Source: Narcine bancroftii
Taxonomy: Eukaryota
Direction: 5' to 3'
NCBI RefSeq assembly: GCF_036971445.1
Contig: NC_091471.1
Location: 114,328,001 to 114,392,000, forward strand
Length of the DNA: 64,000 nt
Below, in pieces: positions 3,541 to 45,505 of this stretch. How positions within the stretch are numbered: position 1 is the first letter of the stretch; each line of letters begins with the position of its first letter. Below the pieces are notes generated by a model. It worked only from the letters and a program-made list of their open reading frames with translations. It made no database searches and was not told the DNA's origin. The position numbers and the translations under genes are program-made.

Positions 3541-3816
3541 CTCACTCAATGACCCAAGATAAAAGATATTAGTTTCTGTACCTGAGGCTTAGTCTTGTGT
3601 CATAGAAAGCCTGCTCTGATTATATGTTCTCATGGTTCAGTTTCCTGCACACCTTCTGCATTTGAATTTAAGATATACTGTATGTTTGAGGCCGCTTAGT
3701 TCTGGATTTGCATGACCTCTCATATTGCTACATTTGGCTAAAGTCATTGGTTATTAAAGTACCATGTGACTGGAAATCAAAATAAATACCTGTCTTTAAG
3801 GCTCTCCAACCTGCAA
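3541..3816. repeat. Left arm of a 276-bp inverted repeat
   Basis: Reverse complement of 4676-4951 with about 6 mismatches by eye. Confidence 0.95.
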
Positions 3817-4675
3817 TTCCTTTAACTCCTTCCTTGCCTTTTCCTCTGGGAAGAAAAACATTGTTGAACACAAAACACTGGACCAGCAGATGATTTCTAA
3901 TTATACTTATGTAGTATAGCTCAGATTTTACTCATAATATTGTTAAATGGAATTAAACATAAATCTCAAAATAGAATTGCTGAATTTATTGATTGAAACT
4001 TGCACATTTATGTGTGTCATGAACAGTTTGAATCTACGATATGACTGACCTTACACTTTTCTTGAGATGTTGTAACTTTGCGGACAATGTAGATAATTCC
4101 ATCATTTATTCATAAGACAACACATGACATAGTGTCCGACCACAATGATTAGACTAAAATGAATATTGAAATTTATTTCCTTAAGAAAGAACTATGTGGA
4201 ACGTGAAGACACACAACAAATGATTTGCCTCACACTGCACTCTGTGCTCTGAAAAAAGCAGCCCACACCCCCAAAAGTTAAAAGGATCTCCTAACCATCT
4301 CCATTCATGATTTATGATTAATAATCCATTATAGATTTCCTCTCCTTACAATTCTTTGATCTTGAAAATAGATAGTAGAGACAGAATATGGATCTTGAAG
4401 GAAACTACAGCTCTTGGCTAACTTTCTGAGACTTCTGTAGATGAGTTTCTGGACTCATAAAGTACATGTTAATAAGCAGCAGAGTGCATCATAAGGAGGC
4501 TGACACCCTCCAAAACCTAAACCATGCCAATTTGAATTCATTCCCATGACTAATAGAAAAGAGATAATCATGCAGTAGGACTTCAGGTACATCAGATATT
4601 TACATGTTTCACCGTGTTGGGATTCCCAGGATGAGGCTAATGCATTTTAATGGCAGATGATGTGACTGCATATAT

Positions 4676-4951
4676 TTGCTGGTTGGAGAGCTGTAAAGAC
4701 AGGTATTTATTTTGATTTCCAGTCACATGGTACTTTAATAACCAATGACTTTAGCCAAATGTAGCAATATGAGAGGTCATGCAAATCCAGAACTAAGCGG
4801 CCTCAAACATCCAGTATACCTTAAATTCAAATGCAGAAGGTGTGCAGGAAACTGAACCATGAGAACATATAATCAGAGCAGGCTTTCTATGACACAAGAC
4901 TAAGCCTCAGGTACAGAAACTAATATCTTTTATCATGGGTCATTGAGTGAG
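4676..4951. repeat. Right arm of a 276-bp inverted repeat
   Basis: Reverse complement of 3541-3816; 859-bp spacer; no flanking TSD seen. Confidence 0.95.
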
Positions 4952-6008: not shown

Positions 6009-6266
6009 TGTGGTGCTGAGGTAGCAGCAGGCAAGCACAAACTCAGAAAAGATTGTACAATAGGCTTTATTCCAGTAAAAGTCTGAACACCGGTTCATGC
6101 CTTGGTATCTCCCTGTGTGACTGATTTTTGGCTCAAGAGGGGCCGGCTCAGGTTTATATTCAGGTCGACTGATTGACAGCCGGCCAGGTGGAGTCAGTTC
6201 CTTAGGTGGTCTTCTTGCAGGTACAGATATCGCCCCCTTCAGTAGGTTGGTGGTCAAATCACCACG
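6009..6266 (-). repeat. 3' LTR of Gypsy copy A
   Basis: Direct repeat of 12930-13177; adjacent PPT; AATAAA on the minus strand. Confidence 0.92.
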
Positions 6267-6705
6267 CTCACTCCCTTCTTAAAATTAAGTCCTGTGGTGG
6301 GGGGGGGGGTGGGGTGGGTGTGTAAAAACGGTGCCAGGTGGTATTTACAAATTCAGGCGGTCCGGCAGCCATCGGAGTCTCTGAGACCGTCACAGGGTTG
6401 GCTCCTGGTCAAAGGTCGGTGAGGGCGTGGTTGCCTGATAGCTGGCTGAGTCCTGCATAGTCATGGCGGGCGTCGGTGTGGGCAGAGTGGTGTCTATATG
6501 TATGTCTGTCCACGGGGTGGTGGCCAGGTGGGAGTAGGGCCCTCTGCAGGGGCAGAGGGAGAAGGTCAGCCCCCAAATCCTGGGTGGGCCAGGGGTACTC
6601 ATGACGGGGAGGTTGGGCTGGGTAGTCATAGAAACATAGAAACATAGAAGATAGGAGCAGGAGTAGGTCATTCGGCCTTTTGAGCCTCATGGCTGATCTT
6701 AAAGT

Positions 6706-8510
6706 TCAGTACCCCGTTCCCGCTTTCTCTCCGTAACCCCTAATTCCCTTATACTGAAGAAATATATCTAATTTCCTCTTAAATATATTCAATGAACCTG
6801 CCTCTACTGCTCTCTGTGGCAATGAATTCCACAGATTCACCACCCTCTGGGTAAAGAAATTCCTCCTCATCTCGGTTCTAAATGGTTTGCCTATTATCCT
6901 CAAAACATGGCCCCGGGTTCGGGACTCCCCCACCATTGGAAACATCCCTTCCGCATCCATTCTGTCCAGTCCTGCCAGAATTTTATATGTCTCTATGAGA
7001 TCCTCTCTCAATCTTCTAAACTCCAGCGAGTACAATCCCAAATTGCGCAATCTTTCCCCATAAGTTATTCCTGCCATTCCAGGTATCAGCCTGGTAAATC
7101 GCCTTTGCACTCCCTCCATTGCAAGAACATCCTTCCTCAGATAAGGCGACTAAAACTGCACACAATACTCCAAGTGTTGTCTCACCAAGACTCTGTACAG
7201 CTGCAGTAAGGTATCCTTATTCCTATACTCAAACCCTCTTGATATGAAGGCCAACATACCATTTGACTTTTTAACCGCCTGCTGTACCTGCATGCTCGCC
7301 TTCAGTGACTGGTGCACAAGAACCCCTAGGTCTCTCTGCACTTCCCCATCTCCCAATCTATTGCCATTCAAATAGTAATCTGCCCTCCGGTTTGTATTAC
7401 CAAAGTGGATAACCTTACATTTATCCACATTGTAGTGCATTTACCATGTATCTGCCCAGTCCTCCAATTTATCCAAATCACACTGGAGCTTCCTGACCCC
7501 CTCTTTAGTGCACACAACCCCTCCTAGCTTAGTGTCGTCTGCAAATTTGGAGATACTACATCCAATCTCCTCATCCAGATCATTAATGTAAATTGTGAAC
7601 AGCTGGGGTCCCAGTACAGATCCCTGTGGCACCCCACTGGTCACCGCCTGCCACTCAGAAAATGAGTCGTTTATCCCAACTCTCTGTCTTCTACCTGCCA
7701 GCCAGTTTTCAATCCACATCAATACCTTGCCCCCAATCCCATGAGCCTTGATTTTGCATGCCAGTTGTTTATGTGGGACCTTATCAAAGGCCTTTTGGAA
7801 ATCCAGGTACACCACATCCACTGGCTCACCCCCATCTATTTTACCTGTCACCATCTCAAAGAATTCCAATAGATTTGTCAAGCACGATTTACCTTTTGTA
7901 AATCCATGTTGACTCCGTCCGATCCCTTCTCTGCTAGTCATATGCTCCGCTATTACATCTTTAATAATGGATTCCATCATTTTGCCCACTACTGATGTAA
8001 GGCTCACCGGCCGATAATTCCCCGCTTTTTCTCTACTCCCCTTTTTAAATAGAGGGGTAACATTAGCTACTGATTAGATCCTGAGTCTATCGAGTTCTGG
8101 AAAATAATTCTTAAAGCATCTACTATCTGAATGTCCACTTCTTTAAGTACCCTAAGATGTAGATAATCAGGCCCTTGGGATTTATCGGCCTTCAATCCCT
8201 TCAATTTCCCCAAGATCATGTCCTTAGAGATACTGATTTCTTTCAGCTCCTCCCTTGCATTAGTCTCTATGTTTCCCAACATCCTTAGGAGGTTATTTGT
8301 ATCCTCTTGTGAAAACAGAACTAAAGTAAGAATTTAATTGGTGTGCCATTTCCTTATTCCCCATTATATATTCCCCTGATTCTGACCTCAAGGGACCTAC
8401 TCTGGATTTCACCAATCTTTTCCTCTTGACATATCTATAAAAGCTTTTGCAGTTGGTTTTTATGTTTGCCGCAAGCTTACTTTCGTAATTTATTTTTGCC
8501 CTCTTGATTA
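6706..8510 (-). pseudogene. CR1 ORF2 reverse transcriptase (in-frame stops)
   Basis: ORFs 7441-8007, 7150-7440 and 6706-7119 are in one frame separated by stops; ORF 8067-8282 lies upstream. Confidence 0.9.
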
Positions 8511-8557
8511 ATCACTGTCCTTTGCCCTATCATACAGGTTCCCATCCCCCTGCCAAA

Positions 8558-9232
8558 TTAGTTTAAACCGCATCCGATGGCTGTACCAAACCTAGCTGCC
8601 AATAAATTGACCCCTTTTGGGTTTAGGTGTAACCTATCCTTCTTGTAGAGGTCATGCCTTCCCCAAAAGAGATCCCAATGGTCCAAGAAGCCAAAACCCT
8701 GTCTTTTACACCAGCCCCTCAGCCATACATTCATTTGTCTTAACCTTCCATTTTTGTCCTCAGTTGCACTTGGCACAGGTAGCAATCCAGAGATCACCAC
8801 CCTGGTGGTCCTATTTCTTAGTTTCTGTCCTAGCTCGCTGTAATCCTTTTTTAGTACCTCCTCCCTCTTTTTATCTATGTCATTGGTACCCACATGTACC
8901 AAGACATCAGGCTGCTCGCCCTCTCCTTTCAGAATACTCTGGACCCGATTTGAGATATCCCGTACCCTTGCATCTAGCTCACAGAATCTCTTGTCTTTAC
9001 CTCTGACAATGGAGTCCCCAATGACCACTGCATTCCTCCTTACCTTTAGTACCACCGTACCAGGCTCAGTGCTAGCGACCTGATCATTGCGGCCAGCTTC
9101 TGTCAGGTCATCTCCCTCAACAGCATCCAACACAATATACCTGTTGCTGAGAGGGGTAGTCACAGGTGTGCTCTCCATTTTCCTGGTATTTTTCTTCCCT
9201 CCCCTGACAGTTACCCACTTAACCTGACACAT
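8558..9232 (-). pseudogene. CR1 ORF1 SGNH/GDSL esterase-like domain
   Basis: Blocks VVIGDSIVRG, VHVGTNDI and DRLHLN. Confidence 0.88.
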
Positions 9233-12200
9233 CTGGTCTTGGGGTAACTATGTCCCTGAAAGTTGAATCTATTAACTCCTCATTCTCCCTTACTAATGAA
9301 GCTGGGGGTGGGGTGGGGCCCCTGCTGGTGCCAGATCCCTCATGGCCATTGGGGTACCTGACGTTGGCATAGTTCTGGTTGGTGTGGAGGAGGAGCACTG
9401 CTCAACCAGCAGGTCGGACTTGTGAGCTTGGATGTGTTTACGGAGGAGCCCCGGTCCTGGTGATGTGAGCCAAGCTGGGAGGGAGACCTCAGTCGCCGAT
9501 TTCCTGGGGAATGAGAAAAGGCGCTCGTGAGGGGTCTGATTAGTAGGCATGCACAAGAGCGACTTAATGGCATGGAATGTATCTGGAGGGTCTCTTGCCA
9601 GTGGACAACGGATCAGCCTTTGGACCTCAGGGCCTTCCAGATCACCCCGGTGTTGTGCTCCATCTGCCCGTTACCCCTCGGTTTGTAGCTAGTCATGCAA
9701 CTAGCCACAATGCCTCACGCTACCAGGTACTGGCACAGCTCCTCACTCATGAAGCTAGACCCCTGATCACTGTACCCAAACATGGTGAAGATCTGCATCA
9801 TTGCCCTGCTAACGGTGGCTGTAGAGGTGTTAGGACAAGGGATGGCGAAGGGAAAATGGGAGTATTTATCTACGACCTCAAGGAAGTAGATGTTCTTGTT
9901 CATGGAAGGCAGGGGGCTCTTGAAATCGATGCTAAGCTGTTTGAAAGGCCAAGTGGCCTTGACGACGTGGACTTGTGGCGGGCAGAAGAAGCACGATTTG
10001 TATTCCGCACAGACCCTGCATGACTCAGTCATGGTCTGGACTTCTTGGACGGTGAAGGGGAGATTCTGGGACTTGATGAAATGGTACAGGTGTGTGAGGT
10101 GTCGTGCAGCGCCTGCAGTTGGTCAGACTGCACAGTGGCACAGGTCCACGATAGGGCGTCAGAGGAATTGTTGAACTTCCTCGGTCTGTACTGGATGTTG
10201 TAGCTAAATGTGGCCAGCTCGACTCTCCAGCGCAAGATCTTATCATTCTTGATCTTGCTTTTATGGGTGGTGCTGAACATGAATGCCACTGTGCGTCGGT
10301 CAGTGAAGAGGGTGAACCTCCTGCCTGCTAGGTAGTGGTGCCTATAGCAGACTGCTTCCCCGATCGCCTGGGCCTCTTTTTCAATAGCAGAGTGCTCGAG
10401 CTTGGAACTGTGGAGGGTCCTGGAGAAGAAGGCCACGGTCGGCCCCCTTGGTTGAGAGTGGCCATGAGGGCAACGTCAGAGGCATCGCACTCCACCTAGA
10501 ATATGGTGTCCTCGTCCACGGCATGCATCATGATATCAGCAATGTCCTGCCTGATGTGAGCGAAAGCTGCTTGCACCTCAGGGGGGAGGAGGGGAAAGGC
10601 TTGGTCCAGAGGTTGGGCCTTGTCCGAAAAACGGGGGACCCACTGGGAGTAATAGGAGAAAAGCCCAAGTCACCTGCAGAGGGCCTTGAGCGTGTGGGGG
10701 AGGGGCAGTTCCATTAGTGTACACATGTATTCTGGGTCAGTACCAATGACACCATGTCCCATGATGTACCCTAGGATGCTGAGGTGGGTGGTGCTGAACA
10801 TACACTTCTCTTTGTTGTAATTGAGGTTCAGCTCCTTGGTGGCTGGAGACACCTCTCCAGGTTGTCATCGCGGTCCTGCTGGTTGTGGCCGCAGATGGTG
10901 ACATTGTCCAAGTATTGGAAGGTCGCTCCTAGGTTGTGCTGGTCTACCATGCGGTCCATCTTCCGCTGGAAGACAGAGACCCATTAGTGACCCCAGACAG
11001 GACTAGGCAGAACTGGTAGAAGTGCCCATCTGCCTCGAAGGTGGTATATGGTTTATCCTGGACGTGGATAGGGAGCTGGTGGTAGGACGACTTTAGGTCA
11101 ATTGTTGAGAAGACCTTATAATTGGCTATCTCATTGATCATGTCTATTCGGGGTAGGGGGTAGGCATCCATTTGGGTGTACCGGTTTATGGTCTGGCTAT
11201 AATCGATGACCATCCTCAGTTTGCTACCCATTTTTACCACTACGACTTGGATTGATGCTGGGCTCTATGATACCTTCTGCCAGAAGTCGCCTCGCTTCTG
11301 CCTTAATGAAGGCCCTGTCGGCCATGCAATAGCAAGGGTGAGGCTTTTGAGGTGGCACTGGAAATCCAGCCCAAAGATGACTGGAGCACAGAGCTGAGGC
11401 ATGACCAGGAGCCTGAACCCTTGGAATGTTCCCCCCAACAGTCAATTCCACTGAGCAGCGCCCAAGGGCCATGGTGGAGCGGTCCTGGGCAGCAAAAGTG
11501 ATGGAAATGTTCATGGGATAGATTTTGAGCTTTAGTGTCCGGGCCACTTTCGGGTGCATGAAGCTCTCAGTACTACCGCTATCGAACAGGCATTTTGTTA
11601 CCTTCCCATTAAGCACTTGAGTCCATGGGGAATGTCCCTTTATAAGGTGGTGGACGTTAGGATCATCTACGCATCTGAGTTGCTGATCCCTGATGGATGT
11701 GGCAAGTAGCAGCCAGCGGCTTCCTTCCTATGTGTGGGGTGCTTTGGGTAGGCTATTGGGTATGCACCCATGTTGACCACGTCATCCCGTCAATGTGGTG
11801 TGCGTGTTGCGGCAGTTGGGGGCTGGCTGACCCAAGATAGCGGCGCCCAGCGGATGCACGTGGCATCGGTGTCGTCGGGTGACCCGACTGGCAGTGAAGC
11901 CAGAGATGACGTCATCCGTGCAGGCGGAAGTGACGCCTTCAGTGCAGGCTGAAGTCATCCGGAGGAAGATAGCAACTCCCAGAGTGAGCAAACTGCAGCG
12001 GTGCAGGTCGGTGGCTGGGCCGGAAGTGATGTCAGCAGTGAGGGTGGAAGTGGTGGGGCAAGTAATGGTGTCGCCCGGTCCTTGCACGTGGCAGTGCTTG
12101 GGATGGCTCCCAGCTGGTCGTGGAGGGCTGCAGCATTCCCAATGAGCCTGGAAAGGCACAACTTGGCGAAGTGGCCTTTCTTCCCACGTCGAGAGCAATG

Positions 12201-12929
12201 TGAATTCCTCACTGGGCAGCCTTTGTGGGATCGCCTGTCTGACCCACACTGGGACCTGCAGTACTTACAGGGATGAGTTGCATCAGTGGCTGCGATCGTC
12301 TCCTCCAAGTAGGGCCCTTTGGTGGTGGTGGTAGTTTGCATCTGCCAAGCTGGAAGTTGGGGGAGTCGGGCATCGAAGACCTCTGCATGATGAGCTGCAG
12401 CCTCCAGGGAGTGGACTACCTTCATTGTCCTGGTAAGTGAGGCAATGCTTTCCTCCAGTAACTTTTATCGGGCGCTCCTCAAGTGCAGCTCTTGCACGCA
12501 GGCATCCTGGATCAGTCCACTTCAGTCACCCCAGTCTCGAGTTTGGCACAGGAGGACTAGCTCATGCAGGATCCCTAGATAGGCATCTGCCATCTTACCT
12601 GTCTCTGGACCCTGATACTGAGTAGGTATCGGGTATAGACCATATATTGTCAGGGCTTGTGTATGCTCTCCAGTATGGCCATCATGGGTTCGTAGTCCAT
12701 GTAGTCCTTGATGGCCTGGAAAGCTCATGGGCCCAGCTTGGTGTGGAGCACCATGAGCCATTTCTGGTTGGTGTTGATCACCTTAGCCTGTGTTTGGATG
12801 ATCACCTCAATCGCGTGCTTCCAGATCTTGAAGCGTGCCAGGGCATCCAGGTATTGGGGATTGATCTCCATGTTCCCGATCATCATAAACTTCTCCATGG
12901 TCTCTCTTTATAATTTTACTGGAATAAAT

Positions 12930-13177
12930 TGTGGTGCACTGAGGTAACAGAAGGCAAGCACAAAACTCAAAAGATTGTACAATAGGCTTTATTCCAGTAA
13001 ACGTCTGAACACCAGTTCAAGCCTTGGTGGCTCCCCGTGTGACTGGCTCAGGAGGGGTAGGCTCAGGTTTATATTCAGGTCGGCTGATTGATAGCCAGCC
13101 AGGTGGAGTCAGCCCCTTAGGTGGTCTTCCTTCAGGTACAGAGATCGCCACCTGCAGTAGGTGGTTGTATCACTGCA
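12930..13177 (-). repeat. 5' LTR of Gypsy copy A
   Basis: TG...CA termini; gag ATG at 12898, 31 nt downstream. Confidence 0.92.
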
Positions 13178-13346: not shown

Positions 13347-13612
13347 TGTGGTGATACAACCACTACACAGGCCACACTCCTACCAGCCTACTGCCAGGGG
13401 AAAACACTGTACCTGCTGGTAGGCAATATGGGAGGCTGGCCCCACCTTCCTGCTGTCAATCACCAGCCTTATAAAGACTCGAGCTGGCCCCTTTAGTCAG
13501 ACACATGAGGCCAGAAGTGTACTGAGAACTAGTGTGTATGTTTTAGCTAATTAAAGCCTGTTGTACAGTCTGTGGACTTTGTGTCAGAATTATTTGCACA
13601 GCAGTGCCTACA
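13347..13612 (+). mobile_element. Solo LTR of the same Gypsy lineage
   Basis: TGTGGTG...TACA; perfect 5-bp TSD GATCT; TATAAA and ATTAAAGCCTGTTGTACAGTC as in the copy D LTR. Confidence 0.9.
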
Positions 13613-14170: not shown

Positions 14171-14456
14171 TGTGGTGATACACCACTAGCCTACTCCAGG
14201 GGGCAATCTCTGTACCTGCAGTAAGACCACCGAAGGACAGACTACACCTGGTCGGCTGTCAAATCAGCTGACCTGAATAGACCCCTAGGGGGCTAACTCC
14301 ACCTGGCCAGCTATCACCTGACCAGGATATAGTTCTGAGCCAGTCACTTGGGAGCCACCATTACAGCCTCTACTGTAGCAGAGACCTTTAGCCAAATAAA
14401 GCCTGTTGTACAGTCTTCAAGTTCGTGTCTGTTTACTGCTGCTGCATTGCATCACG
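14171..14456 (+). mobile_element. Solo LTR of the same Gypsy lineage
   Basis: TGTGGTG...CACG; perfect 5-bp TSD CAGAC; AATAAAGCCTGTTGTACAGTC; similar to the copy A and D LTRs. Confidence 0.9.
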
Positions 14457-18526: not shown

Positions 18527-21486
18527 GTTTAGAGAAAGACTGTGGCATGAAAAAGATTTGACTCTGGAAATGGCTGTGAATATGTGTAGGGCAGCAGAGA
18601 AGCAGAACTCCAGGAGTTTTCCAAAGCTACAGCAAAGCAATGAGGTAAGCTCAAACAGAAAATGCAGCAGGTGCGGAGGTAGACATATTCCAAAGATGTG
18701 ACCTGCCTATGGAAAGTCCTACTCTAAATGAGGGAAGAAGAATAATTTTGCAAAGTGCTGCAAAGCAGGGGCTACCAAGAGAAAAGTGCACATAGAGGAT
18801 GAAGAAATGGCGGAATTCTTCGTGGATTCACTGCAGACGGGTGCTGGTAAAACAAAATGGATTGTTCCAGTGACTGTGAATGAGACAGTAATTCCATTTA
18901 AGCTCAACAATGGAGCCCAGGTGAATCTGTTATTTATGGATGATTACAAGTCTCTCACTGTAAAGAGCAAGATTTATCCGCTGAAATTAAAAGTGACAGG
19001 CTACACTGGAGAGAACATTCCAGTAAAAGGGGGCTGTATGGTGATCTTCAAACACAAAGGGCGCATCAAAGTCACAGCTACTGATTATAGAAAAGAGAGT
19101 ATAGCCAATATTAGGTCTGAGAGCATGTGAAGAGCTCAACCTGGTGAAAAGAGTTTTCATAGTGGCTTCACAGATAGAAGATGAGCTCACAGCATTCATA
19201 GGAAGAGTACACAGTTGTCTTTGAGGGGCTTGGATGTTTACACAAGATCCATGTAGATGAGACAGAGGCTCCTGTTGTCCATGCATTCAGGAAAGTTCTG
19301 TTTCCACTTAGAAAGAAACTTAAACAAGAACTAGCATGCATGGAACAGATGAAAGTGATACAGAAAATTGAAGAACCTACTGATTGGGTCATCATGCAAA
19401 ATAAAAATGGATCATTGCATATGTGTCTGGACCCAAGAGATCTCAATAAAGCCATCAAGAGAGAGCATTTTAAATTGCCAAAACAAGAGGAAATCATGTC
19501 GCAGTTTGCAGGTGCCAAGTGGTTTAGTAAGCTCGACGCATCATTGGAGTTTTGACAGATGAAGCTCAATGAGACACGTTCGAGACTATGCACTTCCAAT
19601 ATTCAACAGGGAAGATACCAATTCTTTCAGCTACCATATGGAATCTTGTTCATACCAGAAGTCTACCATAAAACTATCCATATGATCTTTGAAAATATAC
19701 CTGGAGTTGAGACCATGATGGATGACATCATTTTATGGGGGTCCACCAAGAATTAACATGACACGCGAATGTCAATTTGAAATTAAAGAGAAATGTGAGT
19801 TTGGTGTAAAGACACTGACCTTCAAAGGAGATGTCATATCTGAACAGGGAGTGAAGCCTGATCCAAGAAAGACATCAGCCATTGGGAATTTTGTGAGGAC
19901 CCAAAACAGAGGAGGTGAGATATTTCTTGGGGATGGTGACTTACTTGGCTATGTTCATCCTTTGGCTGTCGACTATGACAGCACCGCATAGGTCATTCCT
20001 TGAGCAGGTCTGGTCACACGAGCAAGAAGAGTGTTTCCAGACACTTAAAAAAGCCCCATCACAAGAGCCTGCACTAAAGTTTTATGATCCGGACAGGCAC
20101 ACCAGGATCTCATCTGATACATCCCAACATGGCCTTGGAGAAGAACTACTGCAGCAGCATGAGGACACATGGCAACCTATGGCCTATGCATCAAGGGCTT
20201 TAACAGGTGCAGAAGTCAACTATGCACAGATAAAGAAAGAGCTTTATGATGCGTGCAAAAGTTCCATCAATACATTTATGGACAAGCTCTTGAAATGGAG
20301 ACAGACCATAAACCATTGGTCTTAATTCTGTCCAAACCATTGAATGACTGTCCCATGTGAGTGCAGCGCATGTTGAAAAGTCTGCAAAAATACAATGTGA
20401 AAATGATCTACATGCCAGAAAATACATGCTTGCTGCTGATGTACTACTGAGCAGTTGACAAGAAAGAAAGGAGTGACCAAGAGGTTAATGTGGAGATACA
20501 GGCCTATGTTGACATGATTATCATCTCATTTCCAGTATCCCAGGATACACAGAGCAAATCAGAAAAGCAACAAAGACAGATGAAACAATGAAAGTGCTCA
20601 AAGATACAATGCAGAAAGGATGTCCAGCAGCTAAGAATGACTCTCCAATGGGTATTCGGGACTATTGGGCTTGCAGAGATGAACTGTCAGTTGTGAAAGA
20701 TATGGTCATCAAAGAGATCAGGTTTGTGATTCCAGTGTTGTTAGATGCACGAAGGACATCTTGATGAGGGAAAATGCAAACATAGAGCTTGAGAGGTGAT
20801 GTACTGACCAAGAATGAACCAAGACATAAGCCAGACCACCGCTTCATGCAAAATATGCCTTACCTATAGACCAAAGCAGTAAGAAGAACTGCTTACACCA
20901 CACCCTGCACTAGATAGGCTGTACTTCAAAGTTAGAGTAGATTTGTTCGACTGTAATGGGAAGTGTCATATAGAAGTAACAGACTATTTTTCCAATTACC
21001 CAGAGGTAACAACACTGCAGTCAACATCCAGCAAAGCAGTTATCACTTTCATGAAAAAAGTATTTGTGAGGCTTCGAGTTCCTTGTGAAGTAGTATCAGA
21101 CAATGGTCCACAATTTTCAAGCAGTGAATTTGAGTCCTTTGCCAGTACTTGGGAGTTTCAACGTACAACTTCAAGCCCACATCACCTAAAATCTAATGGG
21201 ATAGAAGAGAGTTCTATCAAGGTGGTGAAGAGCTTCATGAAGAAAGCGCATGATGGACGAGAGGATTTCCACAGAAGTCTAATAATTTACAGAAGTGTGC
21301 CACTACAGAATAGCCTTTCTCCTGTCCAAATGCTGATGAGTCGACGCATTCAGATCAAACTGCCAATGCATGAAAATCTGTTGACACCTGAAGGAGCACA
21401 CAAAGTCAAACAGGCTAAAGTGGAAGAGAAAGTAAAACGGAAATAGTATCTGATAAGACTGCGAAAAGCCTAGCGGTCCTTAAGCC

Positions 21487-24400
21487 TATGGTTAAACCAC
21501 TGTTATGCTATGATTGGCTGCTGCCGACTGAACTTACCTTCCTAGACCAATCCTACCCATAACACTTTGCATGCTCCCCATTCCACTCTGCCTGAGGTTG
21601 ACGGCTGTTCCAGTCTATAGTTAATAAAAGCCTATTAGTTTCATAACTTCAGTCTTTTGTGACTATAGTCAATTTTATTAAATATATTTTTTGCCAAAGC
21701 ATGGAACAATAGCTGAAACCTAAGAAGCTCAACATCATCCCTCGATCTCTGGATGCCCCGAACATGTTCGAACTCTGGCTACACTGTTTTGAAGAATTTC
21801 TGGTGATGTGGGCTTGAAGTTATACATTGAAACTTCCAAGTACTGGCAAAGGACTCAAATTCACTGCTTGAAAATTGTGGACCATTGTCTGATACTACTT
21901 CACAAGGAACTCGAAGCCTCACAAGTACTTTTTTCATGAAAGTGGATGCTATCACTCGGATGCTAACCAACTGAGATTATTCTTCACACTAGTCGGATCC
22001 AAGTATTCCCAATGATCAACGATGCCAACATGTACCCGACAGCCTTGAAGATTCTGAAGGCCCAATATCACAAGAAAGTAAATGAGGTCTATACCAGGCA
22101 CATCCTGGCCACCAGAAAATAGTGACCCAATGAGTCAACTTGTGTGCAACTGTAAGGCCATGTTGGCTGTCCAGAATGCTGAGGACCTCATTCGGGATGG
22201 TTATGTGGCCGGTATCTGCTCCTGGTACATAAGACAGAAACTCTTGGAACAAAAAGTACCTGATCTGCAGAGGGTGGTTGAACTGTGAGATACTAGAGCT
22301 GGCCCTCCAAAACTTGGATTATTATTATCTGCCTCTTGGTTGCCATGAATGCCTCTATCTTGGGATGGAGAATCATCCCACACCATGAGCGACTGGTCGC
22401 CCACACCATCCCACTCCTTTGGTGACCTGAACTCAGCTGCCATTGCTGGTGATCTTCCCAACTGCTACTTCTGAGGAAGTTTCCTGAGGAAACACTGCCC
22501 TGCCAAGGAGGCGGTATGCACTAGATAAAGGGACATTATGCCAAGGTTTTCCAGTCCAAACTGTCTGTGAAACCTTGCAGCGCCGCATGTGGACTGTCAC
22601 CGCTCTGGACAGTGTGATCAATGGCATCTCCTCTACAAACCACTGCCATCTTGGACCGCATGGCAAATGTCATCTTCTCAGGCATATGACACCATGAGGG
22701 AACAGAAAGGATGACCATCTTGGGACTGAGGGCAGCCAACTCAGGATCGTGAGCGCCATTGGACTCAGATAGCGAGCCTATACTGGCCTCCATCACCCTG
22801 AACTTGCCGGGTCCATGATGAATGTCCAGGTAAATGGGTGTGTTACCGACTGTTTATTCGATGACAGGAGTAGAAAAAGTTTCATTTACCCTGATACCGC
22901 TAAGCACCTATCCCTTAAAGTACAGCCTGTCAAGCACAAGATATCAGATGGGCCCAAATCACACACTGCAGCCATCTGTGGGTCCTGACCATTGGAGGCA
23001 TAGCTTACAAACATTTCAGGCTACTCATCATGATACAACTCTGTGCCTCCTGTGCTACTGAGGCTGGACTTCCAAAGCCAATTTCAGAAAATTGCATTGA
23101 AATTCGATGGGACCCATGCCTCCACTCACCGTCTGCAACAAACAATTCACAGACGGCCTTCTGCGTCTGACCTGTGGCCTATCAACCCTCAAGGTTGACT
23201 CCATCCCCCCCTCAACTGTTCACCAACTTCACCCCCAAGCCAGTGGCCACCAGGAATAGATGGTATTGTGTGGAAAACAAGGCATTCATTAAATTGGAGG
23301 TTCAGCGCTTGTTGGGCAGGGGCATAATTGAAGCCAGCAATAGCCCTTGGAGGGCGCAGGTGGTTGTGGTAAAGAATGGGGAAAAGGATAGGATGGTCAT
23401 AGATTACAGCAGACCATCAACTGGAACATGCAACTCGATGCGTACCCCCTTCCCCACATATCCGATATGGTCAACCAGATTGCACAAAATTGGGTATGAC
23501 CTGAAGTCGGCATATCACCAGCTATCTATCCACCCGGAGGACTGCCAGTATACTGCATTCGCAGCAGATGGCTGCCTCTACCACTTCCTCTGGGTCCCTT
23601 TCAGCATCTTCCAGCAGGAGATGGACCACATGGTGAATCACTATAATCTGCAGGCCACCTTCCCATACCTAGATACCATATCTGTTGCCACGACCTGTAA
23701 GATCACAATCTAAATCTCTGTAAATTCCTCCAGGCAGAAAAATGTCTGAATCTTACTTATAATGAGGACAGATGTGTATCCTGGACAGCACGACTAGCCA
23801 TCCTCAGATGTGTGGTCGAGAACGGTGTCATTGGCCTTGACCCCGACCATATGTTGCTGGAGCTAACTCTCCCACATATCTTCAAAGCACTGAAGAGATG
23901 CCTCATTTTCTTCTCATATTACGCTCAATGGCCACAGTTATCAAGGCCCTCCACAATATTTTCACACTCTTTTGGTACCCCGGCTTCATCCACAGCGATC
24001 GGGGGACCTCATTCAAGAGTAATGAGCTGCAGCAGTAGCTATGGCCGGGGCATCGTCACGAGCAGGACCACGAACTACAACCCTAAAGGGAATAGGCAAG
24101 CGGAAACAGAGAAACAGTCTGGAAAACCACCCTCCTGGCACTGAAGTCATGGGGCAATCTCCCAATGGCAAGAAGTCCTCCCAAACACACTCCACTCCAT
24201 TTATATATGGCCAATAGCAACAAGCCTCAGTCTGCATCAGGGACTTCGCTGCTCACCTGGCTTACATCCCCAGGACTAGTCCTACTTCAGAAGCACACCA
24301 GACAATCTAAAACTGATCCACTGGTCGAGAGGGTCCTCCTTCTCCACATTAACCTCTTGACAGGCGCGAGGACATGGTCTCAATCACTTCAACCGCCACT

Positions 24401-25613: not shown

Positions 25614-25950
25614 CTTGCAACCTGACCAAAAAATGTTTATACTCACTCTTTGCCTTTCCTTTGATAACTAATTGTCAATCAAGCTGGGACGTGGCAGCGA
25701 GGTCCTTGGGTCGTAGGTTTTATATCGGAGTGGCCTTCTCCTATGCAGGTTTCTTACCCGGGCTGGAGGGGCCTGGCTCCCCTCCTAGGTCGGACCATAC
25801 CTGGTCGCAAATCACCTGTGGACATGGCCTAGGTAAGTTTAATTGGGTTCTCTAACTACCTCTGAGGTAGGTCAGGGACCCGGTTGGATTCTGACGGGGT
25901 TGACCGAGTCACACCCTTTCTTACTGCTGTGTAACTGGGGTGTAAAATGT

Positions 25951-26464
25951 AAAAAGCGAGGGGGAGGCGGCGGCCCCAGCCTCGGCAGAGTGAGGCAGGC
26001 GGAGGCCCCGGTCCGGGCAGAAGCGAGGGGGAGGTGGTGGCCCCGGTCCGGGCACAGGGAAGGCGGCGGCGGCCCTGGCCCTGGTCCGGGCAGAAAGAAG
26101 GAGGCGGTGGCCCCGGTCTGGGCAGAGGGTAGGCGGCGGCGGACCCGGCCCCAGTCTGAGCAGAAGGTAGGTGGCGGCGGCCCTGATCCGGGCAAAAGCG
26201 AGGGGGAGGCGACGGCCCCGGCCTCAGTAGAGTGAAGCAGGCGGAGGCCCCGGTCCAGGCAGAAAGAGGGAGGCGGTGGCCCCAGTCCGGGCAGAGGGTA
26301 GGCCGTGGTGGCCCCGATCTGGGCAAAAGCGAGGTGGAGTCGGCGGCCCCGGCCTCGGTAGAGTGAAGCAGGTGGAGGCCCCAGTCCTGGCAGAAAGAAG
26401 GAGGTGGCAGCCCTGGTCCGGGCACAGGGAAGGCGGCGACGGCCCCGGCCCAGTCCGAGCAGAA
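25951..26464 (+). repeat. GC-rich minisatellite (about 15 units of 32-38 bp) in the RTE 5' UTR
   Basis: Recurring unit GCAG(purine-rich)GGCGGYGGCCCCGGTCCGG, ending just before the ATG at 26467. Confidence 0.9.
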
Positions 26465-26466
26465 CC

Positions 26467-29400
26467 ATGGGTGTAAAGGGTGGGGCCAGTACTGTGCACA
26501 CTGCACTCCACCTTAAAGCTCCTTTGCACAGGCCCGAGGACAGTCCACGTCCTCCCCCTCCATGTCCTCCCCCTCAAAAGATGCTCACAAACTCAAGCTA
26601 GCATGCTGGAACATCAGAACCATGCTAGACAAGGCTGACAGCCACCGACCTGAACGTCGGTCTGTCCTCATCGCACATGAACTCCTCAGACTTGACATCG
26701 ACATAGCCACTCTCAGTGAAGTCTGCCTTGCAGATGTAGGCAGCCTCCAAGAACGTGGCGCGGGCTACACACTCTACTGGTCTGGCAAGCCTATGGATGA
26801 ATGACGCCTATCTGGTGTTGGCTTCATGGTCAAGAACTCCATTGCCTCCAAACTCGAAAACCTCCCGACAGGCCACTCGGACCGGATAATGTCCATGCGA
26901 CTCCCCCTTCAAAACAAGCGTCGCATCACCCTCATCAGTGTCTATGCTTCAACCCTCCAGGCGGAACCAGCAGAAAAGGACAAGTTCTACAGTGATCTGC
27001 GCAACCTCATTCAACGCACCCCTACAGCCGACAAGGTTGTCATTCTTGGCGACTTCAACGCTCGCGTCGGCAAAGACTCAGAAACCTGGCCAGGAATCCT
27101 GGGCAAGCATGGTGTCGGCAAGTGCAACGACAACGGGCGCCTCCTGTTGGAGCTCTGCGCAGAACAGCGGCTTGTCATTACAAACACCCTTTTTCAGCAG
27201 AGGGACAGCCTGAAGACCACCTGGATGCATCCCCGATCCAAACACTGGCACCTCCTGTTCTACGTCCTGGTGCGAGAAAGAGACAAACGAGATGTGCCCA
27301 CACCGGAGTCATGCCCAGCGTGGAATGCCACACTGACCACCGGCTGGTTCGCTGCAAGTTCAACCTTCACTTCAAGCCAAAGTCCAGGAACAGTAAAGCC
27401 CCCAGAAAGAGGTTCAATGTTGGAAACTTGCAGTCAGACGAAGTGAGAGGAAACTTCCAGGCAAACCTCAAAGCAAAGCTCGAAGATGCAATCCGCTCAT
27501 GGACTCGTCCCCTGAAACCCTCTGGGATCAGCTGAAGACTACCATACTGCAATCCACTGAAGAGGTACTGGGCTTCTTCTCCAGGAAAAACAAGGACTTG
27601 TTCGATGAAAACAACCAGGAAATCCAGGAGCTGCTGGCAAAGAAGCGAGCTGCCCACCAGGCTCACCTTGCAAAGCCATCCTGGCCTGAGAAGAAACGAG
27701 CCTTCCTTCGCGCATGCAGCCATCTTCAGTGCAAACTCCGGGAAATCCAAAATGAATGGAGGACTATCCTCGCCAAACGAACCCAGCTTAGCGCCGACAT
27801 TGGCGACTTCAGGGGTTTTTACGAGGCTCTAAAGGCTGTGTACAGCCCCTCACCCCAAGTCCAAAGCCCGCTGCGCAGCTCAGACGACAAAGTCCTCCTC
27901 AGTGACAAGATCTCCATCCTCAACCGATGGTCAGAATACTTCCAATCTCTTTTCAGTGCCAACTGCTCAGTCCAAGAATCCGCCCTGCTCCAGCTCCCTC
28001 AACAGCCCTTAAGGCTAGAGCTGGATGAGGTCCTCACCCGGGAAGAGACATAAAAGACAATTGAACAACTGAAAAGTGGCAAAGCAGCAGATATGGATGG
28101 AATCCCCCCACCCCCCAGAGGTCTGGAAGGCTGGCGGCAAAACTCTGCATGCCAAACTGCATGAGTTTTTCAAGCACTGCTGGGACCAAGGAAAGCTGCC
28201 TCAGGACCTTCGTGATGCCATCATCATCACCCTGTACAAAAACAAAGGCAAGAAATCAGGCTGCTCAAACTACAGGGGACTCACGCTGCTCTACATTGCA
28301 AGCAAAATCTTCGCTAGGATTCTCCTAAATAGAATAATACCTAGTGTCGCCGAAAATGTTCTCCCAGAATCACAGTGCGGCTTTCACGCAACAGAGGAAC
28401 TACTGAAATGGTCTTTGCCCTCAGACAGGTCCAAGAAAAGTGCAGAGAACAAAACAAAGGTCTCTACATCACCTTTGTTGACCTCACCAAAGCCTTCGAC
28501 ACCGTGAGTAGGAAATGGCTTTGGCAAATACTAGAGCGTCTCGGATGCCCCCCATGGTTATCCAACTGCACGAAAACCAACAAGGTCGGGTCAGATACAG
28601 CAATGAGCTCTCTGAACCCTTCTCCATTAACAATGGCGTGAAGCAAGGCTACGTTCTCGCACCAACCCTCTTTTCAATCTTCTTCAGCATAATGCTGAAA
28701 CAAGCCATGAAAGACCTCAACAATGAAGACGCTGTTTACATCCAGTACCGCATGGATGGCAGTCTCTTCAATCTGAGGCGCCTGCAAGCTCACACCAAGA
28801 CACAAGAGCAACTTGTCCGTGAACTACACTTTACAGACGTTGCCGCTTTAGTTGCCCATTCAGAGCCAGCTCTTCAGCGCTTGCCGTCCTGTTTTGCGGA
28901 AACTGCCAAAATGTTTGGCCTGGAAGTCAGCCTGAAGAAAACTTAGGTCCTCCATCAGCCAGCTACCCACCATGACTACCAGCACCCCCACATCTCCATC
29001 GGGCACACAAAACTCAAAACGGTCAACCAGCTTACCTATCTCGGCTGCACCATTTCATCGGATGCAAGGATCGACAGCGAGATAGACAACAGACTCGCCA
29101 AGGCAAATAGCGCCTTTGGAAGACTACACAAAAGAGTCTGGAAAAGCAACCAACTGAAAAACCTCACAAAGATTAGCGTATACAGAGCCGTTGTCATACC
29201 CACACTCCTGTTCGGCTCCGAATCATGGGTGCTTTACCGGCATCATCTACGGCTCCTAGAACGCTTCCATCAGCGTTGTCTCCGCTCCATCCTCAACATT
29301 CATTGGAGCGACTTCATCCCTAACATCGAAGTATTCGAGATGGCAGAGGCCGACAGCATCGAGTCCACGCTGCTGAAGATCCAGCTGCGCTGGGTGGGTC

Positions 29401-29768
29401 ACGTCTCCAGAATTGAGGACCATCGCCTTCCCAAGATCGTGTTATATGGCGAGTTCTCCACTGGCCACCGTGACAGAGGTGCACCAAAGAAGAGGTACAA
29501 GGACTGCCTAAAGAAATCTCTTGGTGCCTGCCACATTGACCACCACCAGTGGGCTGATATCGCCTCAAACCGTGCATCTTGGCAGTTCACAGTTCGGCGG
29601 GCAGCAACCTCCTTTGAAGAAGACCGCAGAGCCCACCTCTCTGACAAAAGACAAAGGAGGAAAAACCCAACACCCAACCCCAACCCACCAATTTTCCCCT
29701 GCAACCGCTGCAACCGTGTCTGCCTGTCCTGCATTGGACTTGTCAGCCACAAACGAGCCTGCAGCTGA
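26467..29768 (+). pseudogene. RTE endonuclease-reverse transcriptase ORF with several frameshifts and stops
   Basis: ORF pieces 26562-26804, 26826-27446, 27499-28053, 28076-28507, 28375-28641, 28515-28946 and 29229-29768. Confidence 0.9.
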
Positions 29769-31498
29769 CGTGGACATTTTACCCCCTCCATAAATCTTCG
29801 TCCGCGAAGCCAAGCCAAAGAATTTTCAATCAACATTAGAATACCCTCATCTCAAAGTCTTCTTAAAATCCAAAGTAACATTTCCCCCAGGTACTCCCTG
29901 CATCTCACATTCTCCATCAATTTCAGCAAATCAGCAAGCATATTATTCCTTCATAAATCTTCTTAAACATACATTAAGAATGAGTCATTTTATGACTCCC
30001 CCACCCCTGCCTGAACAAGCCTTGCACCAGCAGTTTAGTTCAGTTGCTGCTGTGGAAGCTATTGAGTCGCTCGAGGATCCAATCTAGAACAAATATGGGA
30101 GTGGCCACTTTGTTTCACCGAGGCAGAGGAGAACTTGGCCATTTCAGAGACTAGAACTTGATGAAGCATGCAGACACCAGAAAGATATTCCTGCACGTTC
30201 AGAGACCCATGAAGATGTTAAGTGCATACGTTCCCATGGGTGGAGGTGATCTGAGATCAATGCCCAGAGGGATCCTGGCCCTGCAGCCATGAGACGTGCT
30301 GTGATATCACATGTTCAATCAAGGTAAATGAAAGTATCACCAAATCCCAGCTACCAGCAAACTGTTGAAATATTCACACACCTACCTTTCTCCTCATATG
30401 CATCTCATGCTCTTCAACCATGGTACAAAGGTATTCTCACATATTTTGATACTGCAATGGAGGATTACCTCCAGTCACTGTCTGCAACAGCTGATGGCAG
30501 GGCAACCCTTCCACATCCAGTGGCTCAGCTGGAGCAAAAGGTCCAGGTGATCAAGGGTTCCAGTGCAAGATGAGGCAGATCACAGAGATGAGGGGGATGG
30601 TATGCTCAATTTCCATCTGCCTTCACTTTCAGCTTCTCCCTCACCTCCCAATCTCTTAGTGTTCCAGCACTTAGATGGTTCAAGCAGGCCTCTGTAGTAT
30701 GGTTCTTCCAATGAACAAACAAATACTCTTCTCATTCTAGTCAATAATGTGATTGAAGTGATTAGGCCCTTGCACTGGAACCACAGAATGCAGAAAGAGA
30801 ACGGCATTCATCAGCCTTGGACTGGGTCTTGTTTGTGGAGTAGAGGATAGTTCAGATCTGGGTTCTGTACATGGTGAGTCATTAGGGACAGATGTGTTAT
30901 ATTCGGGGAGAGGAAAAGGGTAGATCGTGATGTAACAGAAGATCTCTTCTGCTCCAGATGATTCATATGAGGACTTTGATGAGTAGCCCATGGAGGTAAT
31001 TAATGAGAAACTACATTGAGAATCTTGCAACAAAAACTGACAGGGTTAAGGAGCATTGATGGGTTTGGCTCCAACCTTTGTATCGATCCTAGTAGTCAAG
31101 CTTCCCATCAGAAAGGTGGTAGCCAGCAGTATGTTAAGGATCCAGCCATGACCATAGCAGCCACTGCAGTTCAGGCAGAACATAGACAGTGTATGTGTGC
31201 TGCAATGGATCCACTGCTGTCATCATCATGGCTCTTAGTTCCACCATGGACTGGGTTTTTGAGGCAAGAAAGGCAATACTAAATCTGCCCATCCAGTAGA
31301 TTGCTAGGACAGCTGATACCTGTACTTGGGCTCATGCTTATTTTCCTCTGAGACGGTTAAACAATTGTCTTCCTGATCCAGTGTCCCACTTGTCCTTGGG
31401 GAAATCAAACACTGCTGTTTTGGACAAAGTACTGACATTGTGAATGAGCAGGAACCAGGAAAAAGAAGGTGTACTATATAGTTAGATGGCTTCCACAT

Positions 31499-32388
31499 CT
31501 CTTCTTCTTTTCTTCTTCTTTGGCTTGGCTTCGCGGATGAAGATTTATGGAGGGGTAATGTCCACGTGAGCTGCAGGCTCGTTTGTGGCTGACAAATCTG
31601 ATGCGGGACAGGCAGACACAGTTGCAGCGGTTGCAAGGGAAAATTGGTTGGTTGGGGTTGGGTGTTAGGTTTTTCCTCCTTTGTCTATTGTCAGTGAGGT
31701 GAGCTCTGCGGTCTTCTTCAAAGGAGGTTGCTGCCCGCCGAACTGTGAGGCGCCAAGATGCACGGTTTGAGGCGATATCAGCCCACTGGCGGTGGTCAAT
31801 GTGGCAGGCACCAAGAGATTTCTTTAGGCAGTCCTTGTACCTCTTCTTTGGTGCACCTCTGTCTCGGTGGCCAGTAGAGAGCTCGCTATATAACACGATC
31901 TTGGGAAGGCGATGGTCCTCCATTCTGGAGACGTGACCTACCCAGCGCAGTTGGATCTTCAGCAGCGTGGATTTGATGCTGTCGGCCTCTGCCATCTCGA
32001 GTACTTCGATGTTGGAGATGAAGTCGCTCCAATGAATGTTGAGGATGGAGCGGAGACAACACTGGTGGAAGCGTTCTAGGAGCCATAGGTGATGCCGGTA
32101 GAGGACCCATGATTCGGAGCCGAACAGGAGTGTGGGTATGACAACGGCGCTAATCTTTGTGAGGTTTTTCAGTTGGTTGCTTTTCCAGACTCTTTTGTGT
32201 AGTCTTCCAAAGGCGCTATTTGCCTTGGCGAGTGTGTTGTCTATCTCGTTGTCGATCCTTGCATCCGATGAAATGGTGCAGCCGAGATAGGTAAACTGGT
32301 TGACCGTTTTGAGTTTTGTGTTCCCCATGGAGATGTGGGGGGGCTGGTAGTCATGGTGGGGAGCTGGCTGTTGGAGGACCTCATGACC
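31499..32388 (-). mobile_element. 5'-truncated RTE copy of the same family
   Basis: Closely matches about 28945-29820; (AAG)n tail; perfect 13-bp TSD ATGGCTTCCACAT at 31486-31498 and 32389-32401. Confidence 0.95.
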
Positions 32389-38600: not shown

Positions 38601-41600
38601 TACCATATAAGACGGCATTCGGATAAGACAGGTCCCCACTTTCAGCTTGAATTTCATGCTTTTATCATATATTGGGTGCATAACTGCAGTGAACTGGAAT
38701 TCACTGGTAGGGTGATTTTGCTGATGGCTGGCTCCGCCCCCATCTACCCACATAAAACCCTGGTTTCCCGCCTAAACCCAGAACCTTTCTGAAGACTACT
38801 GTGAGACTCTACCCTTAGTTATAAGCTAATAAGAAGGTTCTCCCTCCAGTCGTGAGAGCTTTTATTCACACTACAATTTTATTTTCGTATTCCCGAAATG
38901 ATGGAAGTGCTACTCAAGCCAGGTAGACCTGCTGATAGACCCTCTGTCTCTCGACGTACTGGCTAGACTGCTTTCAGTCCTACCTGAATGCGACCAGAGA
39001 TGTCTTCCACACTGATGAACTTAGGAGGTCTGCACTCATTTCAAGGTAGGAACGAAAGAGTATGCAGTCATCAGGGACTGCACTACATATAACGCTGCTA
39101 TCGAGGAGTTGAAGGCTGGGTACCTGAAGTTGCAAAATGAGGTCCTAGAGTTGCACCGACTCGCTTTACGTTGCCAGGAGAGACCATTGATGATTACCTG
39201 CTGGATCTGTGGATGCTTGCTAAGAAGTGCAGGTATGAAGTGGCTCTGGGCCGCATTCATGAAGAAGAAAATATCTAGGATACCCTGATTGCATGGGTCC
39301 GCTCGAGGTACATGAGGCAGGGACTGCTTGAGTCAGGTAAGAAGGACCTGGCCAAATCGTTGGATCAGGCCAAGCTTGAAAATGATGACCTCAAAGCCAG
39401 CGAGCTTGCTCACCCAGGTGATCCTTTCCAATGACTGGCTGCTCCTGCTACCCCAGCTCTAACGACTTCCGCTTCCCACACTAGGGAGCAGTTCCGTGCA
39501 AGGGAGTGCTTTTTCTGCAGCAAGAGCCAGTATCCGTGATCTTGTTGCCCGGTTAAAGACTCAGTGTGTTCCAGTTGTGGCAAGAAAGGGCACTGGGTGA
39601 GGGTTTGCCACATGAGGGGAAGCCTGGGGTAGTCCACGGCCTGCAATGCTCATGGATCCGATTCCAGCACCAAGCCATCTGCCCCAAATTCAACCAAACC
39701 CACTTGCTGATGGAGGGAAATGAGGAAACAGCGCAAAAAGGCTCAGTGACCATCTTGCCGTGACCCAAATTCAAACTCGGTGCTATCGTCGTCAGAGGAG
39801 GAAGGAGGGTGGCCATCTTGCCATGCCATGAGGTCGACGCCATCTTACCCATACCGGGCAACCCAGGATGGGGCCACTCGTGTGAGGAGTATGGAGTCTC
39901 CGAGTTCCTAGCCTCAATGGTCCTAGATCAGGACTAACCTCAGCAATTCAGCAACTCCATAGTGACTGTGAAGGTAAACGGACATTCCACTAAATGCCCA
40001 ATCGATACAGGCTCTACTGAAAGCTTCACAGACTCACAGATTGTACAAGAGTACAACCTAAAGATGTATCTTTCCAATAATCGTATATTCCTAGCGTCTC
40101 ATTCACATTCTACGCATATTCAACAACATTGTATAGTGCACTTGTCGTTTGAAGGGGGGGGGGAAATTTGTAAAATACACCTGTATGTACTTGATGAATT
40201 ATGTGTTCCAGTGCTGTTAGGTCTGGACTTCCTGTGTCACCTTAAGAGCATGACTTTTGAGTATTCTGGTCCCCTCCCCCTGTAACGGTTCGGAATGGAG
40301 GGCCTCTAAAATCAGAACCCACATGCAGCTTCTCCACACTTAATATCAAACCCCCACCTCTCTTCCTGAGTCTGTCCTCAGACTGCAAATCTATTGCTAC
40401 CAAGAGCAGGAGGCACAACACAGCAGACTGAAATTTTATAAAGTCTGAGACACAATGTCTGCTCAATGAAGGTATCATCAAACCTAGCACCAGCCCATGG
40501 AGAGCAAAAACATGTCCAGTCTAGTAATTGACTATAGCATAACTATTAATCGGTACACACTCCTGAACGCATAACCCCTCCCTCGAATTTTGGACATGGT
40601 GAATGATATTGCACAGTATCGACCACTGACTTGAAAGCATCTGATCACCAGCTGCCAATCCATTCTGAGGACCATCCATATATGGCTTTTGAAGCTAACG
40701 GTCATCTCTATCAATTCTGGAGGATCCCTTTCTGTATTACTAATGGGGTTTCTACAAGAGGCAGATGGACAGAATGGTGGATGAATATGGGTTATAGACT
40801 ACCTTCCCCTATCTTGATAATGTCATCATCTCTGGCCATACCTTGGAAGACCATGACGGCAACCTCCAGAACTTTCTCCATGTGGCGAAAGCCATGAACC
40901 TCACTTATAACACTAACAAGTGTGTGTTCAGGACTAAATGGCTGGTTATCCTTGGCTTTGTGGTGGAGAATGGCATCATTGGCCCCAACCCAGATAGGAT
41001 GTACTCTCTGTTAGAGCTCTCTGTTCCCAGGACCACAAAGGCTTTGATGAGATTTCTGGGGGATTTCTCGTATTATGCCCAATGGATCCCTCAATATGCT
41101 GATAAGGTTCATTCTCTCTTAAAAGCCACTAATTTCCCCCTCTCGGCTGAAGCCCAAAAGGCTTTTAACTACCTCCAAAATCGCATTGCGAAAGCAGCCA
41201 GTGGACAAGAATGCACCTTTCCAAGTGGAAAGCAATGCTTTAGACGTAGCCCTGGTCATTACTCTCAACCAGGCGGGCAGGCCGGTTGCATTCTTTTCTC
41301 AGACATTACAAGCCACGAGCTCCAGAACCCATCTGTGGAAAAGGAGGCTCAAGCCATTGTAGAAGTTGTGAGGCACTGGAGATGCTACCTGGCTGGTAGG
41401 AAATTTATGCTCCTCACTGACCAGTGCTCTGTCGCATTCATGTTTAATAATGTCAAGAAGGCCAAAATCAAGAATGACAAGATTGCTAAGTGGAAGATCG
41501 AGCTCTCCACCTACAATTATGGCCTATCAGCCAGAAGCCCTTAATGACTCTCCAGATGCCTTATCCAGAGGAAGCTGTGCCTTTGCACACACCAGCCAAC

Positions 41601-45474: not shown

Positions 45475-45505
45475 ATTTAATCCACAGAATGTTCCCACGG
45501 CGGCC

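Follow-up and report, generated by a model that had tools for sequence, protein, structure and literature searches.

The window analysed here, a 64,000-nt stretch of the Narcine bancroftii genome, contains element A (copy A), a decayed Ty3/Gypsy LTR retrotransposon read on the minus strand (LTRs at 13177-12930 and 6266-6009). The 5' LTR (12930-13177, minus strand) was 248 nt long, and it was identical to the 3' LTR (6009-6266, minus strand) at 220 of 245 aligned positions. The LTR ends were TG...CA, with the exception of the 3' LTR, which begins with CG. A target-site duplication of 5 bp (CATGC/CATGT) was identical at 4 of 5 positions. Pfam matches were found along the minus strand in separate stop-to-stop pieces, arranged as protease, reverse transcriptase, RNase H and integrase. 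This pol order, the two LTRs, a polypurine tract (6267-6280, minus strand) and the short target-site duplication are those of a Ty3/Gypsy element. The closest solved structure was Ty3, which confirmed the superfamily only. The gag-pol region (9290-12898, minus strand, lower coordinate approximate) begins with a start codon at 12898-12896 and contains stops and frameshifts. In the 5' LTR, the motif TATAAA (13068-13073, minus strand) was taken as a putative TATA box, with counterparts in the 3' LTR of element A (6153-6158) and in copy D (45330-45334). An initiator-like motif (13041-13046, minus strand) lies 29 nt past it, and these motifs predicted a transcription start near 13044.

Other repeats were found in and around element A. 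A LINE of 6625-9290 (minus strand, ends approximate), presumably of the CR1 type judging from its family features, lies within the end of the integrase region. It has the same orientation as element A, with a GDSL-esterase ORF1 (8561-9247), a reverse transcriptase (7444-8073) and a short repeated tail. Two solo LTRs related to copies A and D lie on the plus strand within 1.3 kb of element A (13347-13612 and 14171-14456). They have perfect 5-bp target-site duplications (GATCT and CAGAC, respectively), and both kept the junction motif A(A/T)TAAAGCC. Three long inverted-repeat elements, probably DNA transposons, were located at 28945-32381, 3541-4951 and 21044-21944, with arms of 878, 276 and 149 nt that were 94-98% complementary. 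A GC-rich minisatellite with units of 32-38 nt was found at 25905-26483, with open frames on the minus strand.

We focused on the junction between the 5' LTR and the leader of element A. On the minus strand, the final CA of the 5' LTR (12930) is followed by a single A (12929) and then by TTTATTCCAGTAAAA (12928-12914). This tract (12914-12928, minus strand) lies at the position of a primer-binding site, one base past the LTR end, and has no TGG. The initial annotation had claimed a helix between the LTR and this position, and the helix was found to be real: the tract at 12928-12915 and the 5' LTR bases 13001-12988 are exact reverse complements (14/14 pairs). Its second claim, that the tract was complementary to 15 nt of the 3' LTR, was also borne out, and all 15 nt of 12928-12914 matched 6080-6066 (15/15). 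This 3' LTR copy of the arm has no tract behind it. The arm in the 5' LTR (12988-13001, minus strand) is the candidate self-primer. Its 3' end is the poly(A) hexamer AATAAA (12993-12988), and GCCT follows immediately (12984-12987, minus strand). The boundary between AAA and (G/A)CC is the candidate cut junction.

The helix of copy A was the sole perfect inverted repeat of at least 14 bp with arms no more than 130 nt apart in the 64-kb window, and five composition-matched shuffles of the window gave 0 of that class in each. The upstream 125 nt were also shuffled 200 times with dinucleotide content kept, and by this measure the helix had p = 0.005, with a null mean of 6.2 nt. On folding, it was recovered in both the MFE and the centroid structures, and pair probabilities were 0.68-1.0 in three contexts. 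The folding energy of the whole region was ordinary (z = -0.44 and -1.14), and an Rfam search gave one chance-level match only. At position 13002, contigs from four runs of one study agreed with the 3' LTR at 99-100% of depth. Since these contigs read 13002 as the 3' LTR does, the difference between 14 and 15 bp is one that only this 5' LTR carries. The contigs, of uncertain type, showed no transcript start, end or cut. No substitution in either arm was found among the substitution rows listed for the contigs of these four runs, and three single-contig insertions from one study touched the far end of the tract. Several contigs stopped at 12969-12970, and this was rejected as a poly(A) site, since a difference in T-run length lies there.

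Other copies in the window were compared with copy A. Copy D (plus strand, LTRs 45183-45474 and 49602-49939, target-site duplication GATAC) has an arm at 45405-45417 ending in ATTAAA and a tract at 45476-45488. Its helix of 13 bp is in the same register as that of copy A, with 11 Watson-Crick pairs, one G-U and one more pair, and its letters differ from those of copy A, as the annotation had stated. In copy B (plus strand), the arm at 21616-21629 and the tract at 21673-21686 formed 13 of 14 pairs. One of the three long inverted-repeat elements splits copy B just past its gag start. In the case of copy C, a degenerate tract (38877-38888, plus strand) had its best match, 10/14, to the 3' LTR arm at 42889-42898, and no helix in register was found in the family comparison. 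The U5 of copy C contains a second, 9-nt complement of the arm (42927-42935 in the 3' LTR; similar in the 5' LTR), so that a poly(A) hairpin could form within its LTR, with no need of the tract. As a control we used element E (54099-56896, minus strand), an unrelated LTR element of 2.8 kb. It carries a TGG tRNA-type site (56654-56665, minus strand); the LTR complement of this site was 5 nt at most, and no such helix was found.

Among named relatives of element A, those of sharks and rays ranked first, at 50-55% identity; nematodes, cnidarians, crustaceans and tunicates came next. Where a relative is intact, it carries a single ORF of about 1,200 codons. With a profile built from 38 such relatives, 89 loci were obtained, comprising the best 80 of 271 confirmed metagenome stretches and 9 others. 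A gag start could be placed in 41 of the 89 loci and not in the other 48; two more were left out because of too little upstream DNA, and the tested set, including copies A, B and D, was 42 elements. Within the loci, three pairs (L006/L051, L067/L068 and L073/L074) each represent a single insertion sampled twice. All 38 intact relatives have an RNase H domain. None of the 38 matched a chromodomain model at E <= 0.01, and PF00385 was absent from the domains of the matches listed in two sets of 120. Two scans of viral contigs gave no relatives of element A. The loci L081-L089 were animal-type retrotransposon contigs in assemblies labelled bacterial, and they were most likely host DNA carried into the bins.

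The complementarity was kept in these other copies, and its loss elsewhere, one of two refuting outcomes named in the initial annotation, did not occur. A perfect helix between leader and LTR was detected at p <= 0.01 in 31 of the 42 elements (shuffle null mean about 6 nt), and the gag start codon lay 0-30 nt behind the helix. Among the 11 elements that failed this strict test, L056, L062, L067/L068 and copy B showed a helix in register with one to three imperfect pairs, and L025 formed 12 of 14 pairs with its own 3' LTR. The leader of L063 had no clear match to the LTR, and L030, L053 and L073/L074 had no tract at all. When elements were grouped at 80% nucleotide identity and copy C was added, the helix was present in 21 of 25 families. 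The helix was 11-18 bp long and the loop 21-70 nt across families, whose RT-RNase H regions were 43-81% identical to one reference (33-40% for copy B). The helix is a real feature of the whole clade.

The position of the helix was fixed. In 19 of the 21 family representatives, CA was followed by one base and then by TTT paired to AAA. The LTR end was set independently by LTR pairs in A, D, L002, L005, L008, L017, L038 and L043. In addition, 17 of the 21 representatives had (G/A)CC following the arm in one LTR or both. This fixed register meant that the 3' end of the arm sits at the place of a tRNA end. Pairing was nearly free of wobble. At helix positions 1-11 of the representatives, 228 of 231 pairs were Watson-Crick, with 0 G-U and 3 mismatches, compared with 26 G-U in 189 predicted loop pairs. 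The representatives were the best-paired member of each family, chosen by the analyst, and the count was therefore redone with motif-only anchors. It then gave 224 Watson-Crick, 3 G-U and 5 mismatches (29 of 43 elements, near-identical copies included).

The two arms changed together. The first three helix pairs were nearly invariant. At helix positions 4-13, tract and LTR of the same family paired at 9.7 of 10 positions, those of different families at 5.3 of 10, and only 7 of 420 cross pairs reached 9. L017 and L008 differ at 9 of 798 sites (1.1%), yet the tract of L017 carries the compensating base for one change present in both of its LTR arms. Another compensated pair was observed between L001 and L002/L004 at 17-20% divergence. 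The second refuting outcome, a better-matching host tRNA, was not encountered either: the 3' end of a tRNA did not fit the tract. A TGG tRNA site was found in 0 of 43 leaders, the single pattern match (L046) being the gag start codon. ARAGORN predicted no tRNA gene in the window or in any of 34 loci.

Features around the arm were also compared. In copies A and D, the TATA box and the initiator-like motif would place the arm about 45 nt inside the transcript (+44 to +57 in copy A). L013, L015 and L020 have TATA-like words 23-30 nt before the arm, which would fit Tf1. No common promoter spacing was found in the other families, and most showed neither arrangement. Tf1 requires an additional stem beside the primer duplex. 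Here, a second stem at the junction had a mean of 3.9 bp compared with 3.0 bp in shuffles, reached p < 0.05 in 4 of 21 families, and was absent in A and B. A conserved second hairpin past the arm was convincing by eye but weak against shuffles, and it was rejected.

The complementarity and its fixed position suggested that the helix and the tract are most likely a self-primer and its binding site. We propose that this Gypsy clade primes itself independently of tRNA, with the tract as its primer-binding site, and that the 5' arm would be cut by a nuclease as in Tf1. We give this reading, made from sequence comparison and predicted folds, a probability of roughly two in three. As the genomic RNA is transcribed, the arm of its 5' R region would fold onto the tract, as the complementarity and the predicted fold indicate. 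In the particle, a nuclease, most likely the element's own RNase H as in Tf1, would cut between AAA and (G/A)CC. The freed 3'-OH would then lie one base from the LTR end, the position of a tRNA end that the register defines. Reverse transcriptase would copy the loop of 21-70 nt to give minus-strand strong-stop DNA, and strand transfer would use the short stretch from the cut to the poly(A) site. The primer in Tf1 is reportedly not removed, which implies that plus-strand synthesis renews the site from the primer sequence. In the same way, plus-strand synthesis here would copy the primer, and the site would be rewritten to match the arm. Such rewriting would account for the observed covariation without wobble. 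In most families, where the arm ends in the poly(A) hexamer, the helix probably also hides this signal in the 5' LTR, and the 3' LTR copy, which no tract follows, would stay free. Poly(A) occlusion is a plausible second role of the helix.

The primer might instead come from the other end of the RNA. In that case, the arm of the 3' LTR, on the same RNA or on a dimer partner, would pair with the tract, and the poly(A) tail and the bases behind the arm would be trimmed or cut back to the duplex, leaving a primer at the 3' end of the genome itself. This reading would account equally well for the register, for the covariation without wobble and for the short distance between arm and poly(A) signal. 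It would also provide a longer R for strand transfer, which would be useful with loops of 21-24 nt (L035, L088). However, the 5' arm is only 21-70 nt from the tract and is predicted to be paired at a probability near 1 long before the 3' arm is made. Since the arms are identical at insertion, an exchange would bring no gain in energy. The 15-nt match of the 3' LTR of copy A was rejected as evidence of such priming, because the LTRs were identical at insertion and the extra pair is a post-insertion difference. We know of no precedent for priming from the 3' end, and we considered it unlikely. Self-priming of either kind, from the 5' or the 3' end, was judged highly probable.

The helix could also be purely regulatory, hiding the poly(A) signal of the 5' LTR or controlling gag translation or packaging, while another primer is used. 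A canonical poly(A) hexamer ends the arm in 14 of the 21 families, the 5' LTR alone is followed by a tract, and the short distance from helix to gag start codon is in line with such a role. However, a canonical hexamer is missing from the arm in seven of the 21 families. In two of these it lies in the loop instead, 26 nt in for L002 (AATAAA) and 5 nt in for L003 (ATTAAA); the other five show none nearby. In the L083 family, the loop holds a second AATAAA. For poly(A) occlusion, the helix would not have to keep a fixed one-base distance to the LTR end or be free of G-U pairs, and the element would still lack a primer site. These results made a purely regulatory helix improbable, and self-priming by the 5' arm was retained as the preferred reading.

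A host RNA was considered as a primer at the tract, either a tRNA half or another small RNA ending in AAA, with the LTR arm as a decoy or a by-product. Half-tRNA primers are known in Copia lineages, as described in the available portions of PMC6317226 and PMC10886601, and the near invariance of the first three pairs would also be in line with such a primer. However, the tract varies by family in step with its own LTR, even at 1.1% divergence, and a conserved host RNA cannot follow such changes. This made a host RNA primer very improbable. Finally, a chance inverted repeat or an assembly artefact would suit the AT-rich arms and the ordinary overall folding energy, but it was refuted by the uniqueness of the helix in the window, its absence from all five shuffles and a register shared by 21 of 25 families of varied origin.

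Self-priming by the 5' arm would resemble known systems in part. Like Tf1 and Tf2 of Schizosaccharomyces pombe, Tj1 of S. japonicus and the Tf1/sushi group, the relatives of element A have a site past the 5' LTR that is perfectly complementary to their own upstream LTR, no tRNA site, and a single gag-pol ORF with RNase H. Unlike the Tf1/sushi chromoviruses, they lack a chromodomain in all 38 intact relatives, and the clade is not assigned to the Tf1/sushi group here. In Tf1, the first 11 bases form the duplex with the site, and the RNase H cut falls between bases 11 and 12, according to the parts available of PMC7175516, PMC4600332 and PMC5341516. In contrast, the arm here ends in AAA, usually as the poly(A) hexamer, and is followed by (G/A)CC, the helix is 11-18 bp long, and the loop is only 21-70 nt. 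Whereas the Tf1 primer is the 5' end of the transcript, the arm in A and D is predicted from the promoter motifs to be internal to R.

In the available portion of PMC6317226, self-primers are predicted from LTR complementarity of at least 10 nt beginning 0-5 nt past the 5' LTR. Copy A has 14 nt beginning 1 nt past the LTR, and such complementarity was found in 21 of 25 families. The same type of evidence was used there for plant Tcn1 chromoviruses and for TAR Copia elements (Houba, Osr-1), and these cases show that self-priming arose outside Tf1 before. Unlike the clade of element A, their hosts are plants or fungi and TAR belongs to Copia, and that portion of the text does not mention an overlap with the poly(A) hexamer. 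The Conserved Hairpin Site of fungal GalEa and the polypyrimidine tract of dictyostelid Skipper also replace the tRNA site by another conserved feature directly past the 5' LTR. However, no complementary LTR sequence was found for these sites in the available portions of PMC5445492 and PMC5006619, whereas the tract here has a covarying LTR partner. Both arms of the GalEa hairpin lie downstream of the LTR in the part of PMC5445492 available, whereas one arm lies inside the LTR in element A.

The helix of element A can also be compared with the poly(A) hairpin of HIV-1, which occludes the 5' poly(A) signal. The HIV-1 hairpin sequesters AAUAAA of the 5' R region, as the helix of element A would. 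In HIV-1, both arms of the hairpin are in the LTR and priming is by tRNA, whereas one arm in element A is the putative primer site outside the LTR. The full combination would be a widespread animal Gypsy clade without a chromodomain that acquired self-priming independently of Tf1, takes its primer from inside R at the boundary of AAA and (G/A)CC, and hides the 5' poly(A) signal with the same helix. This combination is put forward tentatively, and it is somewhat doubtful that all of its parts hold together.

We examined whether this clade had been described. Cigr-1 of Ciona intestinalis, which we take to have an LTR of about 245 bp and about 1,200 codons, matches the relatives of element A in size. 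On this likeness in size, the clade may be the Cigr-1 clade, which also includes molluscs and annelids. No match named Ciona was found among the 120 matches listed. 'Selfy' is a label of a Gypsy group. It was not found in the literature searched, and a prior description at the level of Repbase is possible. The Cigr-1 clade is named in the available portions of PMC6238403 and PMC8556966; the term PBS is absent from the main texts of both, and no Cigr-1 sequence was found in the supplements searched (PMC6238403). The portions of PMC6238403, PMC8556966 and PMC3670739 that were covered gave no description of a primer site for this clade, and those of PMC3601003, PMC10886601, PMC5443660 and PMC10680173 contained nothing on the clade of element A. 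No account of self-priming in the clade was found in the literature, with Repbase, GyDB and most subscription journals outside the scope. Self-priming here would be a variant of a known, Tf1-like mechanism, in a group where, in the literature searched, it was found undescribed.

According to the literature covered, tRNA priming is the rule for animal LTR elements, with the Tf1/sushi chromoviruses as the exception. If self-priming by the 5' arm holds, this exception would widen to a compact clade with named relatives in sharks, rays, nematodes, cnidarians, crustaceans and tunicates. PMC3601003 asks, in the portion available, which arose first, hairpin or tRNA priming, and a likely independent origin would be added to this question. 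Such elements would be free of control by tRNA supply or tRNA fragments, and annotation pipelines that require a tRNA site would miss or mislabel them. With a leader of less than 150 nt and natural compensatory variants, the cut site and the effect on poly(A) are directly testable.

Several elements differed from the common junction. In L006 (= L051), the second helix pair was mismatched in both LTR arms and not in the tract. The self-priming model allows this as a change inherited from the 3' LTR of the parent, and the mismatch shows either that a defect is tolerated at the junction or that the junction is placed slightly differently. At its far end, the L006 helix was also longer than in its sister copies. 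L013 and L046 have other junctions, with two bases after CA and no (G/A)CC, and yet they form perfect helices of 14-15 bp. From these two, the pairing of the helix may be older than the junction motif. In L020, 18 nt of a sequence located about 50 nt upstream of the arm recur as a direct repeat in the leader before gag at 2337. This repeat starts inside the tract and extends into the leader, and it could record a template switch during primer copying.
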